DNA of 64,000 nt. It comes from a virus. Each line of letters starts with the position of its first letter. The first letter of the stretch is position 1. The stretch covers positions 1 to 64,000 of the IMG/VR virus record IMGVR_UViG_3300035211_000097; one strand, 5' to 3'. Below the pieces are notes generated by a model. That model worked only from the letters and a program-made list of their open reading frames with translations, had not been told where the DNA came from and did not search any database. Both the position numbers and the translations under genes were made by a program. This document shows positions 11,802 through 26,710 of the stretch, in pieces.

Positions 11802-12338
11802 ATGGCAAAGACATTCAGCGGTTATAAACTGCATGGTCATATGAAGTTTCAGGGTCTTGATATATCCATAGAAAATGAGAGGGGATCAGTTAGACGTGGT
11901 GAGGATGCAAATGGCAGGCCGTGGGCTACTTTCATGCATATCCCTTATGGGTATATTAAAACTACTGAAGGGGTGGATGGAGATCATGTAGACTGTTATA
12001 TCGGCCCGAACTGGAATTCTATGTTGGTATTTATTATACACCAGCAAGACCCTATTACAAAAAAATATGATGAGGACAAATGTATGCTCGGTTTTAATAC
12101 TGAGCAGGAAGCCCGGAAAGCATATGAAAGACAATACGATAAGCCCGGTTTTTTCCAGTCAATGACTATTGTAACTATGCCACGGTTTAAAACCTTGTTG
12201 AAAGAAAAATATGGGCTTAAACTGAAATCAAGAAAAGATAGAAAGCTGGTATGTCAGCACAGACAAAAGAAGCAGGGACATTTACCGGTAAATTCGGATC
12301 AGGTGTTTGAGGAAGGTCAGCATGGCAAAAAAAAGTAG
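11802..12338 (+). CDS. InPase (inorganic pyrophosphatase-like) domain of the phage polyvalent-protein type
   Basis: FQGLDISIENERGSVRRG...W...M..PYGYI..TEG.DGDHVDCYIG...DEDKCMLGF. Confidence 0.85.
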   Translation: MAKTFSGYKLHGHMKFQGLDISIENERGSVRRGEDANGRPWATFMHIPYGYIKTTEGVDGDHVDCYIGPNWNSMLVFIIHQQDPITKKYDEDKCMLGFNTEQEARKAYERQYDKPGFFQSMTIVTMPRFKTLLKEKYGLKLKSRKDRKLVCQHRQKKQGHLPVNSDQVFEEGQHGKKK

Positions 12339-12498
12339 AATAATTGTAGGCAAGGGAAGGCCCTTGCCACAGAAGGTATTGCGTGAAGCCTCCAAGCGAT
12401 ACACAGAGGATTCTGTAACTATTTATGATGGAGCCACAGGTCTTTTTGCTACTGAAGAACAGAAGAAAAAAGAACAGGAGTCCATAGCTTCAATATGA
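12322..12498 (+). CDS. Small basic hypothetical protein
   Basis: ATG at 12322 after GAGGAAGG. Confidence 0.5.
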   Translation: MAKKSRIIVGKGRPLPQKVLREASKRYTEDSVTIYDGATGLFATEEQKKKEQESIASI

Positions 12499-13868
12499 AA
12501 AGGTTAGTTATTCTGAGCAAAGCAAAATATACAAAACGCTGGAAGGGTAAAGATGGAAAGTGGCATTATGAATACCCTCAGGCGAAGAAAGGCAGAACAA
12601 AAAAGGACATTACAGATACACCAGAATTTAAACGGTGGTTTAAGGATTCCAAGGTTGTGGGCAAGAGTGGCAAGCCTCTGGTTGTCTACCACGGCACACC
12701 GGTGGGTGAGTTTGATGAGTTTATGACGGATGTTCCTGTTGATAAACGTAATTTCATTCAAAGCAAAGGTGCTTTTTTTTCATCATCGACAAATACTGCC
12801 AGCGAGTATACTTTTAATTACCGTAAAATGTTGCCTGCTGCTGAAAGATTAGAACAGAAAAAAAGTGAAGCGATGAGAGCGCATATAGCTGCCAAGCAAG
12901 CAGGCGATACAGAACTGGCGCAAAAATATAATGACGAATATTACAGACTGCATGATCTGGATATGAAAACTTATCCAGATATGAAAGACAAACTTTTTCG
13001 AGGCCCTGTTTATCCCGTGTACTTGAGTATACAAAATCCGCTGGTTGTGGATGCGGAAGGGAAATACTGGTACGAGGTAATGCCTGATATTTATAAAAAA
13101 GATTTAAGCGGGTATGATGGTATTATATTTAAAAACATGATTGAGATAGGTGAACCGCAAGATACCTATGTGGTGTTTGAACCTACACAGGTCAAGTCAA
13201 AATTTAATCGAGGTACTTTTAATTCAAGAGACCCGAAAATAAATAAGAGTCTACAAAAAGCAAAATATTTAAAACGCTGGAAAGGCCCTGATGGAAAGTG
13301 GCGATATAAATATAAAGAGACTGCCCCACCCAAAGGAAAATATGAAAAAGCTGTGGCAGAGATGGAAGATTTTTGCCTTAAGTTTTATGGTAATAAATCT
13401 GAAGTCGGTGTCAGTCTGGATGCAAAAGGTAATGTGCTTACCGAGACTTATGGCGATGCAAACAGTGTGCGCTATTCTAATGAAGATATAAAGAAGTTGA
13501 ATGGCGCACGGGTACATATACATAATCATCCATCTGATGTCAGTTTCAGTATGGCAGATATGGCTTTCGGAATTATCAACAATATAAAAGAAATGCGAGT
13601 GGTCACAGAGAAACATATTTACATTTACCGTCCACCGGAAAAAAGGGAGCCTTACGATCGGGAAGAGGGACGGATCAGGGTTGAGTTAGCTAAATCTGCT
13701 ATACAGGCACACTGGGAACGGGCGAGTGCTGCGAATTATGATCGGGTACATAGTATGCATGAAAGTGGTCTTGTCACCAGAGAAGAGGCCAGTCATGTAT
13801 TTCAAAATGATTTGGTAGAAACGTTTGCAAAAAATTACGGTGGTACATATATAAGGATGAAGAAATGA
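12495..13868 (+). CDS. ADP-ribosyltransferase (ART-PolyVal) + JAB/MPN-like two-domain effector with duplicated basic tag
   Basis: TPEFKRWF.DSKVV...PLVVYHGT, GAFFSS, VYPVYLSIQNPL, GYDGII, VVFEPTQVKS; C-terminal E...HNHPS..SFS.AD. Confidence 0.85.
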   Translation: MKRLVILSKAKYTKRWKGKDGKWHYEYPQAKKGRTKKDITDTPEFKRWFKDSKVVGKSGKPLVVYHGTPVGEFDEFMTDVPVDKRNFIQSKGAFFSSSTNTASEYTFNYRKMLPAAERLEQKKSEAMRAHIAAKQAGDTELAQKYNDEYYRLHDLDMKTYPDMKDKLFRGPVYPVYLSIQNPLVVDAEGKYWYEVMPDIYKKDLSGYDGIIFKNMIEIGEPQDTYVVFEPTQVKSKFNRGTFNSRDPKINKSLQKAKYLKRWKGPDGKWRYKYKETAPPKGKYEKAVAEMEDFCLKFYGNKSEVGVSLDAKGNVLTETYGDANSVRYSNEDIKKLNGARVHIHNHPSDVSFSMADMAFGIINNIKEMRVVTEKHIYIYRPPEKREPYDREEGRIRVELAKSAIQAHWERASAANYDRVHSMHESGLVTREEASHVFQNDLVETFAKNYGGTYIRMKK

Positions 13869-14323
13869 CAACAAAGATAAAATTTCGGTTGTTAAAAGAA
13901 ACCTCACAAATGCCACATTTCGGCGGTGAGGATGAAAAGAATGCAGGGATTGATTTTTGTGCAGCTGAAGAGGTGATGATCTCTCCAAAAAGTTCAGAAG
14001 TGGTTGGTCTGGATGTTGCGTGGGAAGTTGATAAATATATTGGGAACTTGCATAAATACGTTATGATCATTCAGTCCCGGTCAGGACTGGCTTTTAAGCA
14101 TCAGATAGAAGCCTCTAATGCCGGGGTTATCGATGAAGATTACCGGGGAGAAATAAAAGTACGACTCTATAATAATTCATATGAGCCGTTCTTTGTAAAA
14201 CCCGGAGATCGTATTTGTCAGGGAATTGTATCAGAACTTCCTGATATAATGATAGTAGAGGCAGAAGAATTATCAGAAACAAAACGGGGTGACAAGGGGT
14301 TTGGGAGTAGTGGTATAAAATAG
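13865..14323 (+). CDS. dut: Trimeric dUTPase
   Basis: AGIDF, SRSGLA, AGVIDEDYRGEI, GDRICQ, RGDKGFGSSG (five motifs). Confidence 0.95.
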   Translation: MTTKIKFRLLKETSQMPHFGGEDEKNAGIDFCAAEEVMISPKSSEVVGLDVAWEVDKYIGNLHKYVMIIQSRSGLAFKHQIEASNAGVIDEDYRGEIKVRLYNNSYEPFFVKPGDRICQGIVSELPDIMIVEAEELSETKRGDKGFGSSGIK

Positions 14324-14760
14324 TGGATAAACGAACGTTGATAGGAAAATTCATACACACCAGCTGGGCGAATTTAAATATTCGCTGTGGTAAATATAGA
14401 CACTTACAAACTACTAAAAAATGTAATACATATACAAGTGTTGTTATACATTTTTCCAGAAAAGAGTACAAGAAGTGGTGTTTGGAAAGAGAAAAACAGA
14501 TATTATCTTTGTCTCGACCTTCTTTAGATCGTATTAATCCTGCTGGCGATTACACAATAGAAAATATACAAGTTATAGAGCTTGCTGAAAATATACGGAA
14601 AGATAAAAACCATTATAACGGGTACGGTGTGTGTTCTATATGTAAGCAAAAGAAAAAGAGCCGGTTGTTTACAAAAGATAGAAGAAGACGCAGTGGGAGG
14701 GGTGCTGTGTGTAAATCTTGTGATAGTAAGCGGAATTCTATAAGTACAGGAGTGAAGTGA
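14323..14760 (+). CDS. HNH-like (homing) endonuclease with C-terminal Zn finger
   Basis: RPSLDRINPAGDYTIENIQV...EN; CSICK...CKSC. Confidence 0.75.
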   Translation: MDKRTLIGKFIHTSWANLNIRCGKYRHLQTTKKCNTYTSVVIHFSRKEYKKWCLEREKQILSLSRPSLDRINPAGDYTIENIQVIELAENIRKDKNHYNGYGVCSICKQKKKSRLFTKDRRRRSGRGAVCKSCDSKRNSISTGVK

Positions 14761-15257
14761 TGAAATTAGTTGTTTTCAAAAACAAAGAAAAGGTTGTTCC
14801 GGCTACCTTACTCAAAGCCGAGAAGAGAAAGAAACGAGTACATAAAGGTGAAGACAAAGACGCTTTTATTTCCCGGAAGATGTCGGAGATGAAAGAAGAA
14901 TTCCCGGATCAGGCACAGCGGTATGCTGTGGCTTTGAGTATGTGGGAAAAAGAGCGTGGTAATTCTGATGTTGCCAAGTCTCTGTTTTTAAAGGCTAAGT
15001 ATATCAGCAGAAAAAAGGGAAAAAATGGTAAGTGGGTTTACACCTATACTAAAAATAAACATCAGCGAGCAACTTCTGTAAGTTCGGATGATGATTTAGA
15101 TGAAAAATGGAATAAAAAAGTGGAAACTGCACGAAAGATACTTATACAAAGTGGATCAGATAAGGAAACTCTTTCAAGGTATTTAGATGATCCTGACGAA
15201 GATGAAATTGACATGATAATCAAGAGGGGAGTTACAAGCCGTAAAGACAGTACATAA
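14757..15257 (+). CDS. Putative internal head protein with basic tag
   Basis: LLKA, VAKS, FLKAKYISRKKGKNGKWVYTY; FISR.MS...EFPD..QR.A module. Confidence 0.65.
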   Translation: MMKLVVFKNKEKVVPATLLKAEKRKKRVHKGEDKDAFISRKMSEMKEEFPDQAQRYAVALSMWEKERGNSDVAKSLFLKAKYISRKKGKNGKWVYTYTKNKHQRATSVSSDDDLDEKWNKKVETARKILIQSGSDKETLSRYLDDPDEDEIDMIIKRGVTSRKDST

Positions 15258-15344: not shown

Positions 15345-18300
15345 ATGAAGTATAAACCGGATACATTGATTAAAGTAGGACGTACATGGTTTTTTAAATC
15401 ATTAGATAATAAATTAGTTTCTTTCAGAGTACACAGACCTGAAGTATTTAAAATTTTGGTAAAAGGTAAATACTATTCTCCCGATGAAGTAAAGGCCCGT
15501 GGTATGCGCTGGGTTACAATTAGAGGGGCCAGAGTACTCCTACAGGGAGTGGGTGACGGCTGGGTTGTTGTCGGCGGTGCAGGCGGTAAGTTGAACCATA
15601 TGAAGATTGACCGAATTCTTTCCAAAGAGGATTATGCTGAGAAGCGTAAAGAAAAAGAAAAACAGAGAAAGGATATAGGTCGGGAGCTTACCCCGGAAGA
15701 GAAAGCAGCGGAACAGGCCAAGTCCGAAGAAAGAAAAAAACAGGAAACAGCAGCTCTCACCAGCTATGTTCAGAAAGTGAATGCGCTGGCCGGAAATAAG
15801 CTCGATATAACTGCTGAGAATATTAACCGGGTAGAGTCAGCTGCCGGGAAGGAAGTTGATTTTAATCGAAAGGTTATGCGGGCCATGCTTTCACCAGAAG
15901 AGATCGAAAAGATCAGAGAACAGGCTAAGGATTATGTTTCTAAGCAGAAGCGATACCGGGACATCGGGGAAAAGCGTGACACTAAAACCGAAAAAGACAT
16001 GCAGACTCATATTGATAAAGAAATAGACAGACAAGTTAAGCGAAAGGTTAAAGAGAAAACCAGACAGATTGAACATCAGGCGACTCAGCGGATTGCTCAC
16101 GATATGCTGGATGTAGGGATCAAGGATAAGGAGCTGTCTACTGCTATCGATCTTGAAAAAGCCAAGAAAATCTTGAAGTACAAACGTGATTTTAAAAAGA
16201 CCATGAAGGATATTTATGGAGAGACAGAGGCCGATGATGCATCCTACAAGGTCGGTATGACGTATGCCGGGGATATGGAGTCTGATTACGATGGTATTCT
16301 GGAACAGGTTAAAAACGATATTGAGACTGAAAAGAATATTGAATTCTATGATAAAATCGACAAGAAATATGAACAGCTTCACAAGCATATTGATAAATCA
16401 GCTGCTGCTGCTTTGAATGGAATTATGGCTGATTCCTATGGAACCGGAGCATTTTTTAACTCAAATATGGTAAAAGAGCTGGGAATTGATGCTGTTTCGA
16501 GAGCAATTGCTTATAAAATACAGATAGACGGCAGAGCAGATTCAGTAAAAGAAGCACTGGTGAGGCACTCGAATAATGTTAGATTGAAGACGGTAGAGAA
16601 AGCCTTGAAAAACGCTGATCAGGCAATGGAAAGCACACAGGATATTTTGGACTTGGCTGATGGTGATGATACTGTGTATAGTAAGGCTACTGCAAACGGC
16701 TATGCAATACGGCATCGTACACAAGCAATGCAGGAACTCGCCGGTGCAGCCGGGTCTTTACGTGCCATGGCACATATGATAGATGCTCTGGAAGACCCAC
16801 CGAATGATTTACTTCAAATTGATATGGGGCGTGATCTTTCTAAAGCAAAACGCAGAATGAACAGGGCCGGTTTAAAAAATGATCAATATTCCATAAAGAA
16901 ACAGAGTAACGGTAGGCTAATGGCTGAAATAAAATCATCTTCTCTGACACCGTTCTTTGAGAATTCCCATGAAACCAATTTAATGAAACAGAAGCTGAAC
17001 AAAATCAAACGGCATGAAATGAATACCGGTCATGTCAGTGACGGGATTAAACCTGAATATACATGGTCAAAAGATGCCCCGGATGCTCAGGAAGCTGGCT
17101 ACCGGTTTGCAAAGGAAAGGGGCCGGGCTTTACTGGATTTTAAGGCTGGTCTGGGAAAAACATTTATAACAGCTAACATTGTGGCTGATGCTGTTAAAGA
17201 GGGAAAGAAAGTTCTGATAGCTGTACCGGCAAATTTAAAGGGCCAGCAGGTAAAAGAATTACAGAAGTTTACCATGGCAGATATAGGGGATCAGGTAAAA
17301 TCCTCTTTTAATTTTACACGTACAGGTGGTATGGAAGAATTGTCCCCGGAAGATAGATTGGCCCGGTATAATGAACCCGGTGTCCATGTTGTCAGCCATA
17401 ATGCTTTGATTAACGATAAAGAAGCTCTAATGAATGCCGGTTTTGATGTAATTGTAGCTGATGAAGTTCATCAGATGATTAACTCAAAGCTGGGAGATAA
17501 TGAAAAAAAAGTAAGTTCCCGGACATACAGGAGCCTGAAGGAACTGTCAGCAAATGCTGAAAGCATGGTAGCCATGACTGGAACACCGATCAAAAAACAT
17601 AAGGTTGAACTTAAGAAATTGGCCGATCTGGTAGACCCGGACAATAATCTGGGATCAAATACAGAATTTGTAAAAAGGCATGCAGGTATAAATCAAACTA
17701 CCTCTGCTTTCCAGTCTTCAGAAACAGAAGCTTTGAGAAAAGAGGTGTCAAACTTCACTTATTCTCAGGGGTATACTCTGAGGCCGAAACACAATGTAAC
17801 TGAACAGAAGATTACCATGTCACCTGAACAGCGCAGGCGTATGTCGCAGATACAGCAGCAATATGCTATTGATACTGCCAAAGGCAATAAAAATGCAGCA
17901 GCGACCCGTGACATCGATCTTTGGCGAAATACACATCTGACTGGCGGTGTAAATAATCCAAAGTTTCAGGCTATTATAAATGACATCCAGACAAACGGAA
18001 AAGATCAGAAAGGTCTGTTATTCTTTTCACAGGGAGCTGCTACAGAGGGTGTTGCGCAGTATGCGAAACAGCTTAATCAGGTTTTTGGGGAAGGAAGAGC
18101 TGAAGCAGTTTCCAGTAAGACCAGTGCTACTAAACTGGAAAGACTGAAAGCAAAAATAAATGATCCAAATGATCCCCTGAGGTTTTTGGTGGGGACAGAA
18201 ACTTTGTCTACCGGTCATAATTTACAGGGTGCCGGTTTTGTTCATCATGTAGATATTCCGATGAGTAAAGCACAATCGGATCAGCAGGAAGCGAGAATGT

Positions 18301-23760: not shown

Positions 23761-23773
23761 ATGGAGTTTGATA

Positions 23774-24577
23774 ATGCGTGAGACTTTGGAAAAAATCGAT
23801 AATCCGTTTTACAGTCCTTTCCCGGACAGTTCGGTATTGATAAAAGCAGAAGAGCATAACGACAAATGGATCGTGTATATGCAGGCTTCTAATGAAATTC
23901 GGGATCAGGAAGGTGACATCATAGAGATGTCGGCTTTGAAGAAAGCCCGTGATTATTATTTGAGCCACGGGGTCTTGTCATGGAACCATCAGCATAAGAT
24001 CAAACAAGACCCGAAATACATTGTCGGTGAACCCATAGACGTGGAATTTACCAACAATAACGAAACCATATTGAAAGGGTTTCTTTATAAAGAAAACGAT
24101 ATCGCTCAGAACATTATGAAAAATATACGTTCCGGGGCGAAAAAATTAGGTGCTTCTATCGGAGGTGGTATTCTACATAAATCACAGGACAAAAAAGTTT
24201 CTGCGGTTATTTGGGATGAGACAGCAATAACGCATTGTCCGGTAAACGATGGAACACTGGGAAATGTACAGATTGTACCTTTTGCAGAATTCATGAAAGC
24301 ACTAACAGCTGGTTCCGGGGTAGACGCTTCGTCTTTCTCAGGTGGCCGGGCCATAACTCCTGAAAGTATGCAGGGAGCTACGGTAGAAATGATTGGTAAC
24401 AGGTCACAGCTTGAGTGGGATAGTATTTTCACTTCTTTGGCAAAGGCCATTGCTACCGATGTGGTAACCAATTATAACGAATTGGTTGATTTTTGCAGCA
24501 GTAATCTTGGTTTAGATCAAGATGAAATAAAGGCGGTTGGTCAGACTGTCGTAAATTATTTTAAACGGGAGAGCTAA
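23774..24577 (+). CDS. Prohead protease
   Basis: ASNE.RDQEGD, WNHQH, ASIGG, ETAIT..PVN; upstream of scaffold and MCP. Confidence 0.85.
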   Translation: MRETLEKIDNPFYSPFPDSSVLIKAEEHNDKWIVYMQASNEIRDQEGDIIEMSALKKARDYYLSHGVLSWNHQHKIKQDPKYIVGEPIDVEFTNNNETILKGFLYKENDIAQNIMKNIRSGAKKLGASIGGGILHKSQDKKVSAVIWDETAITHCPVNDGTLGNVQIVPFAEFMKALTAGSGVDASSFSGGRAITPESMQGATVEMIGNRSQLEWDSIFTSLAKAIATDVVTNYNELVDFCSSNLGLDQDEIKAVGQTVVNYFKRES

Positions 24578-24579
24578 AC

Positions 24580-25323
24580 ATGAAAACAGGCGAGAAAGAA
24601 AAAGAAACTGTTTTAGATCAGGAAGCTCTTGAGAAATCTCTGGACACTTCGATGGCCGGTTTAAAAGCAGAATTGGGTATAACCCCTGTTGAACCTGTCA
24701 AACCCGAACCTCTAAAAAAAGGTAAAACCGAGGAAGAAAACGGCGAACCTGAAGACACTGAAGGGGAATCTGAAAAAGAGAAAGACGGCGAAGAAGAGGG
24801 ATACGAGGAAACAGCAAAATCCATTGAAGCAATGATGAATGATGCCCCTGAAGCTGAAGCAGCAATGGATGTAGAGCCCTTTCTCCGTACTCTCGTAAAG
24901 AGTATCGACAAGAGATTTAATGATCTCGCTTCTCAGATGACTGATGAAGTCGGCAAAAAACTTGACGGTGTTGTAAGTCTTGTGAAATCACAGGCCACAA
25001 TGATGCTTGCGCAGGCTGATCTTCAGAAGTCCATCAGCGAAAACACAAGGAAGATAGGGGATCAGACAATTCCCTCTGCTTCTGTCCGAGGCAAAGCCGG
25101 GGAACGCTTTGCAAAGAGTAATGATGGGAAGACACCAGAAATCGACTTCTCAAACATTGATCCTGCAAAAATTGACACTCTTGAGTGGCTGAAGAAAGGA
25201 TGGATCAACAATACTCAGGCCACTGTTATTGATAACAGGGTCACCAAAAACGCTTTGTTTAAATCGGGTGATGCCACTGATCTTATGGTGAAATCACTCA
25301 TAGAAAAACAGGAGGCTAAATAA
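24580..25323 (+). CDS. Putative scaffolding protein
   Basis: Between protease and MCP; acidic; many hydrophobic-x-K-S sites. Confidence 0.7.
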   Translation: MKTGEKEKETVLDQEALEKSLDTSMAGLKAELGITPVEPVKPEPLKKGKTEEENGEPEDTEGESEKEKDGEEEGYEETAKSIEAMMNDAPEAEAAMDVEPFLRTLVKSIDKRFNDLASQMTDEVGKKLDGVVSLVKSQATMMLAQADLQKSISENTRKIGDQTIPSASVRGKAGERFAKSNDGKTPEIDFSNIDPAKIDTLEWLKKGWINNTQATVIDNRVTKNALFKSGDATDLMVKSLIEKQEAK

Positions 25324-25324
25324 A

Positions 25325-26710
25325 ATGAAACCAGCAGCTATTTTTGACGAAAAGCTCACAGGATATGGCGAACTGCATGCGGAGTCTCTTCAGAATTTGC
25401 AGAAAGCCTTAACTGCTGGTGACGGTGTTGATGCCGGTTCTTTTACCGGTGGTCGTGCGCTGACACCTGAGAGTTTAGAAAAAACTCTGGTCAACATCCT
25501 GCATACACAGGATGAAGCCGTTCTGTTCAAAGCTCTGAAGAAAACACCCATCAAAGGGCCTGTTCACCAGTGGAATCAGCGTGACGAAGTCGGCGCAGAT
25601 GACGGAGCATGGGTACCGGAAGGTGGCGATTCTGAAGACACTGATCAGAACATCGAACGTAAGTACTTGACTGCGAAATATCTTCAGACTCGCAGACAGG
25701 TAACCTTGCAGGCAGCATCGACAAACATGCTCGAAAACGCAATGGCAATCGAACAGAATGCCGGTATGCTCTGGCTTGTGAGAAACACAGAAAAAGGTCT
25801 GATCTACGGAAATTCAGACCATGTTGCGTATCAGCCCGATGGACTGATCAAACAGATTCCCACATCGAACGTTCTTGATATGAGAGGTGGCGATGCAACG
25901 TCCAGCACCTTTGAAGATCGTATCGGTGAATCCGCAAGACTCATCCGTGACAGTTATGGTAAGGCCAGTCTGATATTGTCCTCTACCATGGTTATGCAGG
26001 ATGTACAGGTTCTGTTGAGAGACAGGATCAGATTTCAGGCAGGAACTACACAGGGAAGTGCGGTGTTCACAGAATATCCCACACCTTTTGGAACACCTGA
26101 TCTGAAAGAAGACATCTTCATCAAGGAAGGAAATGTACCTTCTCCGTCAAGTCTGACGGCAAAAAGACCAAGTGCGCCTACTCTGGGTACGCTGACAACC
26201 CCTGCCAGTACAACCGGTTACTCTTTTGATGCCGGTTCTGCAGGTGACTATGTGTATAAAGTTGTCGCAGTAAACAGGTACGGTGATTCTGTTGCTTCAG
26301 CAGAACTTGTTGTCGCTGGTGTCGCCACAGGTGACATGGTTCAATTTACCATTACTGATGGTGCTGTAGCCGGTACAGCTTACAAGATTTACCGCTCAAT
26401 TAAGGGTGGTGTTACAGGTGCTGAAGTAAGGTACATGGAAACAATCGTAAGAACAGGTGCAGCCACTGTTTATCAGGATGATAACAGTGAACTTCCCGGA
26501 TGTTCTGACGTTTTCGTTCTCACAATGGAAGGAATGTATGATGCAATCGAATGGTTTCAGTTTCTTCCAGCAATGAAGTTCGATTTATTTCCGACAAATG
26601 CAGCTGTTTATCCGTTCCTGATGCTTATTTTCGGAGGTCTTGCACTGAAGAAACCGCCTCAGCATGTACGGATCAAAAACGTTGCGCCCTCTAATCTGGG
26701 CTGGTTCTAA
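25325..26710 (+). CDS. Major capsid protein (SPO1/Twort-like)
   Basis: LQK-ALTAG.G.D....GGRAL..ESL N-terminus, EGG, Y.YKVVAVN..G.S, LPG, QFLP.MK. Confidence 0.9.
   Translation: MKPAAIFDEKLTGYGELHAESLQNLQKALTAGDGVDAGSFTGGRALTPESLEKTLVNILHTQDEAVLFKALKKTPIKGPVHQWNQRDEVGADDGAWVPEGGDSEDTDQNIERKYLTAKYLQTRRQVTLQAASTNMLENAMAIEQNAGMLWLVRNTEKGLIYGNSDHVAYQPDGLIKQIPTSNVLDMRGGDATSSTFEDRIGESARLIRDSYGKASLILSSTMVMQDVQVLLRDRIRFQAGTTQGSAVFTEYPTPFGTPDLKEDIFIKEGNVPSPSSLTAKRPSAPTLGTLTTPASTTGYSFDAGSAGDYVYKVVAVNRYGDSVASAELVVAGVATGDMVQFTITDGAVAGTAYKIYRSIKGGVTGAEVRYMETIVRTGAATVYQDDNSELPGCSDVFVLTMEGMYDAIEWFQFLPAMKFDLFPTNAAVYPFLMLIFGGLALKKPPQHVRIKNVAPSNLGWF

Follow-up and report, generated by a model that had tools for sequence, protein, structure and literature searches.

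Gene organisation at the locus

The window analysed here is a stretch of 64,000 nucleotides (positions 1 to 64,000 of IMG/VR record IMGVR_UViG_3300035211_000097) and belongs to the complete, ~96-kb genome (95,702 bp, with terminal repeats) of an uncultured, metagenome-derived phage. Nearly all of the phage genes are on one strand, and the major capsid protein is ~28% identical at best to those of isolates, the nearest being Herelleviridae-like and Otagovirus-like phages. Within the window, a single ORF encodes a 457-residue protein in which a short leader is followed by a basic/aromatic hairpin (tag 1), an ART-PolyVal domain, a second hairpin (tag 2) and a JAB-like domain (Table 1). This arrangement bears out the first-pass annotation, which had read the protein as tag 1, ART, an INKS-LQKA linker, tag 2 and JAB. 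In the AlphaFold model of the full-length protein, residues 1-8 of the leader are disordered and of low pLDDT. The same N-terminal form, M(K/R)LV(I/V)L(S/T)K|AKY, in which the bar marks a predicted cut, is also present in unrelated metagenomic genes.

Table 1. Features of the ART-JAB gene, the tags and the related head genes, in window coordinates.
Feature	Position	Strand	Details
InPase gene (PF18823), upstream neighbour	11802..12338	+	in relatives fused as InPase-tag-ART or InPase-tag-SNF2/TopoIB
Whole gene: leader, tag 1, ART-PolyVal, tag 2, JAB-like domain	12495..13868	+	457 aa
Leader MKRLVILSK	12495..12521	+	9 residues, ends in putative cut site L7-S8-K9|A10
Tag 1, basic/aromatic beta-hairpin	12522..12575	+	residues 10-27, strands 14-17 and 23-26
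ART-PolyVal domain	12606..13244	+	about residues 38-250; H66, F94, Y105, D223; tail N-x-G-T-F..P.I
Putative protease site at domain joint	13251..13262	+	L253-Q254-K255|A256
Tag 2, beta-hairpin	13260..13313	+	residues 256-273, strands 259-263 and 269-273
JAB/JAMM-fold domain	13338..13865	+	about residues 282-457; E303, H343, H345, S352, D355
Third tag copy, inside ORF 14757-15257	14991..15047	+	front FLK|AKY
Prohead protease (phrog_1028; weak S78 signature)	23768..24577	+	5 [LMF]xK[AS] motifs
Scaffold protein	24580..25323	+	7 [LMF]xK[AS] motifs
Predicted capsid protein maturation site	25397..25408	+	L25-Q26-K27|A28, before N-arm ALTAGDGVDAGSF..

On its downstream side the gene is flanked by a dUTPase, an HNH-like ORF, a small ORF with a tag and a 1049-aa SNF2 helicase. 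These are followed by a protein with a SAM-lyase-like domain, several unknowns and then the prohead protease, the scaffold and a major capsid protein of the SU10 type, with the block leading on to these head genes. A portal gene lies at 90468-92012 of the genome. The dUTPase and the HNH-like or zinc-finger ORF (13865-14760) stand between tagged genes, and the block therefore mixes likely cargo with ordinary metabolic genes.

The InPase and ART-JAB genes are in the same frame, and the idea that they are one frameshift-broken gene was considered and rejected, as 157 nt with stops separate the two. The idea is also opposed by the ART-JAB start, M(K/R)LVILSK, which is a standard N-terminal form elsewhere. 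At the 3' end of the InPase gene (12327-12338) a run of eight A stands directly before the TAG stop, and a 63-codon ORF in the +1 frame (12307-12498) bridges the gap to the ART-JAB start with an ATGA overlap. If the A-run were a place of slippage or of an assembly error, the InPase would be longer by ~53 residues; one relative instead has an InPase-tag-ART fusion.

The ART-PolyVal domain

The first enzyme domain matches the Pfam family ART-PolyVal (PF18760, Tox-ART-HYD2 clade) with 67.1 bits, well over the family's cut-off of 31.2 (E 3.8e-18), and has a helical insert at about residues 108-168. Its catalytic columns were read from a phmmer-anchored alignment of the matches, since MAFFT misaligned proteins with several ART copies and the full-length model was unreliable across this domain. 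H66, within VVYHGT, falls in a column that is His in 178 of 188 sequences. It had previously been noted that D-T-Y stands before YVVF where a catalytic Glu is usual, and that the ART may for this reason be atypical or non-catalytic. The residues are present (DTYVVF, with D223), but the conclusion drawn from them does not hold. The ART-PolyVal clade is defined by a His-Tyr-Asp triad, with the His on strand 1, the Tyr on strand 2 and the Asp on strand 5 (Iyer et al., 2017; PMC5512222, cited here and below from selected passages), and Asp is the commonest residue in the column (D 58, T 31, E 11 and N 10 of 144), so that D223 is typical of the family. As such there is no argument for an inactive ART. 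Position 94, a candidate for the triad Tyr, is Phe, as it is in about half of the family (F 47 and Y 33 of 92 in this column), which is a point against the course proposed below. Y105, 11 residues further on and conserved in 63 of 75 sequences, is the other candidate column in this unreliable part of the model.

The ART domain closes with a conserved tail, ..RGTFNSRDPKINKS, which places the end of the domain ~3 residues before LQKA. INKS therefore lies within the conserved tail (I249 in 118 of 131 sequences), with LQKA directly after it.

The JAB-fold domain

By sequence, the C-terminal domain has no match in Pfam, NCBIfam or the PDB, and neither the RadC (PF04002) nor the Prok-JAB (PF14464) profile recognises it. 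A profile search of the PDB returned only matches to designer 'Pizza' repeats, which were discarded as spurious, and one relative, P0121, reaches RadC with an E of 0.056 only. An exhaustive HMMER search of the database's cluster representatives found 518 relatives of the JAB family at E <= 0.001, some of which are solo proteins of ~200 aa and others segments within giant proteins (1,000-3,000 aa).

A model of the domain built on a 48-member alignment reached a pLDDT of 92.7, and its Foldseek matches are almost all JAMM/MPN proteins. On re-alignment, the model superimposes on P. furiosus JAMM1 (5ld9) with Z 7.4 and rmsd 3.0 over 103 residues, and on CBASS Cap3 with Z 7.0. Similarly, in a search of 48,161 PDB representatives made independently of Foldseek, the 12 best matches are all JAMM/MPN (Z 7.2, rmsd 3.4, 107 residues) and include Cap3, Rpn11, the Bil deubiquitinase and RadC; the deaminase fold, which is related, appears only after these. 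The JAB metal motif, described as intact in the first-pass annotation, is indeed complete: E303, H343-N-H345-P, S352 and D355 are all present, and across the 48 members the two His and the Asp are invariant while the Glu, Asn, Pro and Ser are kept in at least 90%. The Glu, His-x-His, Ser and Asp are shared with the JAMM/MPN enzymes PfJAMM1, Rpn11, AMSH, CBASS Cap3, the Bil deubiquitinase and RadC (fold Z 6.1-7.4). The domain differs from these enzymes in its missing match to the Pfam RadC and Prok-JAB profiles, in a His-to-Ser spacer of 6 residues, one shorter than the 7 of the canonical HxHx7SxxD, and in its C-terminal part, where a long helical hairpin precedes the final strand.

The combination of fold and complete motif makes the JAB assignment sound in spite of the middling Z scores. 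The predicted structure thus confirms a JAB/JAMM fold for the C-terminal domain, while tied Z scores do not separate a classical peptidase from a RadC-type enzyme. The domain may remove conjugates as a peptidase or work on nucleic acid in the manner of RadC; ubiquitin-like defence conjugates and nucleic acid, the targets put forward in the first-pass annotation, may each be its substrate. No gene for a ubiquitin-like partner was found, and a literature search on counter-defence by phage JAB proteins returned nothing relevant.

The N-termini of solo family members are formed by at least six distinct peptides, namely the KAKY hairpin, KYLKRTGSPGNYKY, MGGRGA, HPR..GRF, QPR.PAG..GGQF and KLV.K..GK..VWV, which argues that the JAB domain behaves as a payload and not as a tag-specific processing enzyme. 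With 518 matches, no Pfam model and at least six phage tags, the JAB-fold family seems to be a common effector that has so far escaped notice. The short peptides on these solo relatives of 13326-13865 look like interchangeable addresses on one payload.

The hairpin tags and the joints before them

The motif KAKYxKRWKGxDGKWxYxY occurs in exactly three copies in the whole genome, at residues 9-27 and 255-273 of the 457-aa protein and in ORF 14757-15257. The DNA of tag 1 (12519-12574) and tag 2 (13257-13312) is 82% identical over 56 nt, and that of the third copy (14991-15046) is 63% identical. Of the 13 residues that tags 1 and 2 have in common, 10 are written with the same synonymous codon where 6.2 would be expected (p=0.026), and the third copy has no such excess. 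The earlier remark that the two tags are also alike at the DNA level therefore describes a real likeness, one that goes only mildly beyond what the identity of the proteins demands. In the full-length AlphaFold model both tags are two-stranded beta-hairpins (pLDDT about 83-91, with about 85-91 for tag 1). A Pfam match of tag 1 to LPD23 was not significant (E 0.58), and a weak overlap of DUF3979 with the HKY-type tags of relatives remained below the cut-off. Literature searches on the tag and on a capsid-cargo cassette returned nothing relevant, and the joint of putative cut site and hairpin appears to be undescribed in the literature searched.

In the 457-aa protein the two tags are fronted by ILSK|AKY and SLQK|AKY. 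The residues in front of the tags were compared in 50 unique tag copies, gathered from the window, from 32 metagenome loci and from protein matches. Leucine is found at -5 in 40 of the 50, Lys at -3 in 49, and Ala, Ser or Thr at -2 in 49. These L-x-K-[AST] residues lay outside every search pattern that was used to collect the tags.

The motif in the head proteins

The same kind of site precedes the predicted mature N-arm of the capsid protein, which reads ..NLQK|ALTAGDGVDAGSFTGGRALTPES (LQK|ALTAG..), and the capsid proteins of relatives read SLFK|ALEAGSGVD (loci L016 and L026) and ALTK|ALEAGTGVD (L030). Furthermore, [LMF]xK[AS] is found 7 times in the scaffold against 0.61 expected and 5 times in the protease against 0.39 expected, and none of 1,000 per-protein shuffles reached either observed count. 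The scaffold and protease of L016, L026 and L030 have the same enrichment, and the tail genes of these loci have none. Over the block from 11.8 to 26.7 kb, L.KA occurs 14 times against 2.7 expected. The protease itself has the DxxGDII...NH signature common to HK97 gp4, and its matches to the S78 profiles (Peptidase_S78_2) are weak (E 0.018 and 0.06).

Such a distribution is that expected of a head protease which would cut the scaffold, the capsid protein, itself and cargo. The proposal that the prohead protease splits the protein at its linker is thus plausible, and the joint before each tag can plausibly be regarded as a prohead-protease site, given that L-x-K|A precedes the tags and the capsid N-arm and that the motif is enriched in scaffold and protease. 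A third match in the 457-aa protein, LAK|S at residue 398, lies inside the helices of the JAB domain and counts against cutting.

Residues 175-200 of the protease (24290-24367) are a near copy of the capsid N-arm, with FMK|ALTAGSGVDASSFSGGRAITPES corresponding to LQK|ALTAGDGVDAGSFTGGRALTPES of the capsid. An N-arm-like stretch, VFNK|ALMAGSG.., is also present in the protease of L016 and L026. This copy could dock the protease into capsomers and be a point of autocleavage.

Modules and joints in relatives

Among relatives, the modules are fused, split, gained and lost at this joint. Both joints are preserved in P0002, the closest ortholog at 69% identity. In P0003 (locus L006), InPase, tag and ART are in one ORF with the dUTPase gene directly after it, and the tag-JAB unit is absent, the break being at the joint. 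P0121 is built as tag-JAB-tag-JAB, P0222 and P0168 are solo tag-JAB proteins, and in giant proteins elsewhere the tag joins InPase to either SNF2 or a type IB topoisomerase. In L016 and L026, genes with a tag are interleaved with the head genes (protease, scaffold and capsid), and in L001 and L002 such genes adjoin the portal gene. At 1265-2840 of L006, the ART ORF ends in ..RKSKLVLRLK, which resembles the leader MKRLVILSK.

Comparison with known systems

Polyvalent proteins with ART, InPase and SNF2 domains have been described (Iyer, Burroughs, Anand, de Souza and Aravind, 2017; PMC5512222). As in the phage-type members of that class, unrelated effector domains are joined here in one polypeptide (ART-PolyVal with a JAB fold, and InPase and SNF2 adjacent), in a portal-terminase phage, near virion genes and with predicted delivery together with the DNA. 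In the passages of that paper drawn on here, RadC-type JAB domains are listed only for polyvalent proteins of conjugative elements, processing is ascribed to zincin peptidase domains, and a cassette of cut site and hairpin is not mentioned (PMC5512222). The protein at this locus differs from phage-type polyvalent proteins in being very small, with two modules, in having its neighbours split into separate genes and in lacking a zincin MPTase.

In T4, the internal proteins IPI-III and Alt have a capsid-targeting sequence that is removed by the prohead protease gp21. The protein here likewise has a short N-terminal leader that ends in a putative site of the head protease. The sites read L-x-K|A and would belong to an S78-like enzyme, whereas those of T4 read L/I-x-E and belong to gp21, which suggests the same logic in another family. 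Moreover, the conserved hairpin would stay on the predicted product in this phage, and internal units would give several cargoes per precursor. T4 cargo that is packed in the head and injected includes the ADP-ribosyltransferase Alt (Iyer et al., 2017; PMC5512222), and by analogy with Alt the ART would modify host proteins.

A closer likeness of site is found in HK97, where gp4 (S78) removes a 103-residue scaffold domain from gp5 and leaves S104 (FNK103|S104LGSDADSAG). In both phages the cut, which is predicted for the capsid protein here (LQK27|A28LTAGDGVDAG), has Lys on its N-terminal side, a small residue on the other side and a hydrophobic one at P3. The likeness of the protease to gp4 is weak, however, and unlike in HK97 the scaffold is a separate protein and the motif would also be used on a non-structural enzyme cargo.

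Proposed course and alternative explanations

The 457-aa protein is a small polyvalent (multi-effector) protein of the phage type with two cassettes, each made up of a putative head-protease site ([L]-x-K|A), a basic/aromatic beta-hairpin of ~18 residues and an enzyme. By a modest preference, the protein is probably a two-module cargo that would enter the procapsid, be split there by the head protease behind K9 and K255, and reach the host in the form of hairpin-ART and hairpin-JAB. The analysis shows the domain identities, the hairpins as models, the sharing and enrichment of the motif and an evolution by cassettes; we infer the packaging, the cuts, the delivery, both activities and their targets. 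In this course, the precursor would be made late and would enter the procapsid with either the hairpin or the short leader as its address. The S78-type prohead protease would then cut after K9 and K255, and the products, hairpin-ART (residues 10-255) and hairpin-JAB (residues 256-457), would both ride in the capsid and reach the host with the DNA. There, the ART (H66/Y105/D223) may modify a host target using NAD+, and the JAB domain (E303, H343, H345, S352 and D355) may be a zinc hydrolase whose substrate is either a peptide or isopeptide bond or something related to nucleic acid. A wider and more tentative proposal is that L-x-K|A together with the KY..R.W.G..G.W.Y.Y hairpin is a portable cassette for loading, cutting and carrying, in which the hairpin might be an address or anchor (for the procapsid interior, the portal or the packaged DNA) and the head protease might free the modules.

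The main rival to a cut cargo is a protein that works uncut with two domains, in the virion or not, in which the tags bind, for example, DNA or a partner and L-x-K-A is a structural part of the tag fold. We regard this as rather doubtful, although several observations are in its favour. The conserved L, K and A positions adjoin the hairpin and are modelled, at low confidence, as a helix leading into it, which could be part of the tag's own fold. N-terminal tag copies have only 7-9 residues in front, of which cutting would remove very little, although the targeting leaders removed in T4 are also only about 10 residues long. The vRNAP of N4 and some polyvalent proteins of plasmids undergo transfer without being processed (PMC5512222). 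An uncut protein would, however, leave unexplained why the motif stands before the capsid N-arm and shows a 10-fold enrichment in scaffold and protease in four phages, and why fission, fusion and cassette loss fall exactly at the joint.

It is improbable that the protein is not capsid cargo at all, being instead a cytoplasmic enzyme of a nucleotide- or NAD-related cluster (InPase, dUTPase, HNH) located upstream of the head genes. The interleaving of the dUTPase and the HNH-like ORF with tagged genes would suit such a cluster, and with all genes on one strand position says little on timing. Against this, the PHROGs to which the InPase is similar have the annotations minor head protein, virion protein or DarB-like, the tagged genes of other phages are wedged among protease, scaffold and capsid genes or stand beside portal genes, and ART-PolyVal and InPase are hallmark domains of the phage-type polyvalent proteins predicted to be packaged (PMC5512222). 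Far less credible still is a JAB domain that is itself the processing peptidase at the tags, in a role like that proposed for zincin-like MPTase domains. JAB enzymes are metallopeptidases, polyvalent proteins often carry a peptidase of their own (PMC5512222), and the JAB-like domain often stands directly after a tag; yet many polyproteins with tag joints are without a JAB domain (L011, L015 and L027), members of the JAB family stand behind at least six unrelated types of tag, and the putative cut motif is the one shared by the head protease's capsid and scaffold substrates.

Should the joints be true protease sites, the capsid-borne enzymes of phages and the cut points of polyproteins could be predicted from a short sequence grammar. 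This would bear on the delivery, within seconds of the start of infection, of enzymes for anti-defence and host takeover. Were the cassette reading true, any enzyme behind a cassette would be an injected capsid cargo, and the injected proteome of uncultured phages could be read from sequence alone. Ordinary tryptic proteomics would be blind to the cut, as this is predicted to fall after Lys, which may explain why such processing went unnoticed.

Other tagged proteins

The small ORF at 14757-15257 has LLK|A at residue 18 and FLK|AKY at residue 77, with the hairpin in the middle of the protein, and may yield two small pieces. The 1049-aa SNF2 helicase begins with a different tag behind a similar site (15456-15530, about residues 38-62), ILVK|GKYYSPDEVKARGMRWVTIRG. 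The giant protein of L016 shares this SNF2-type tag unit as IISK|AKKYSKEDLKAKNMRWVTIRG.
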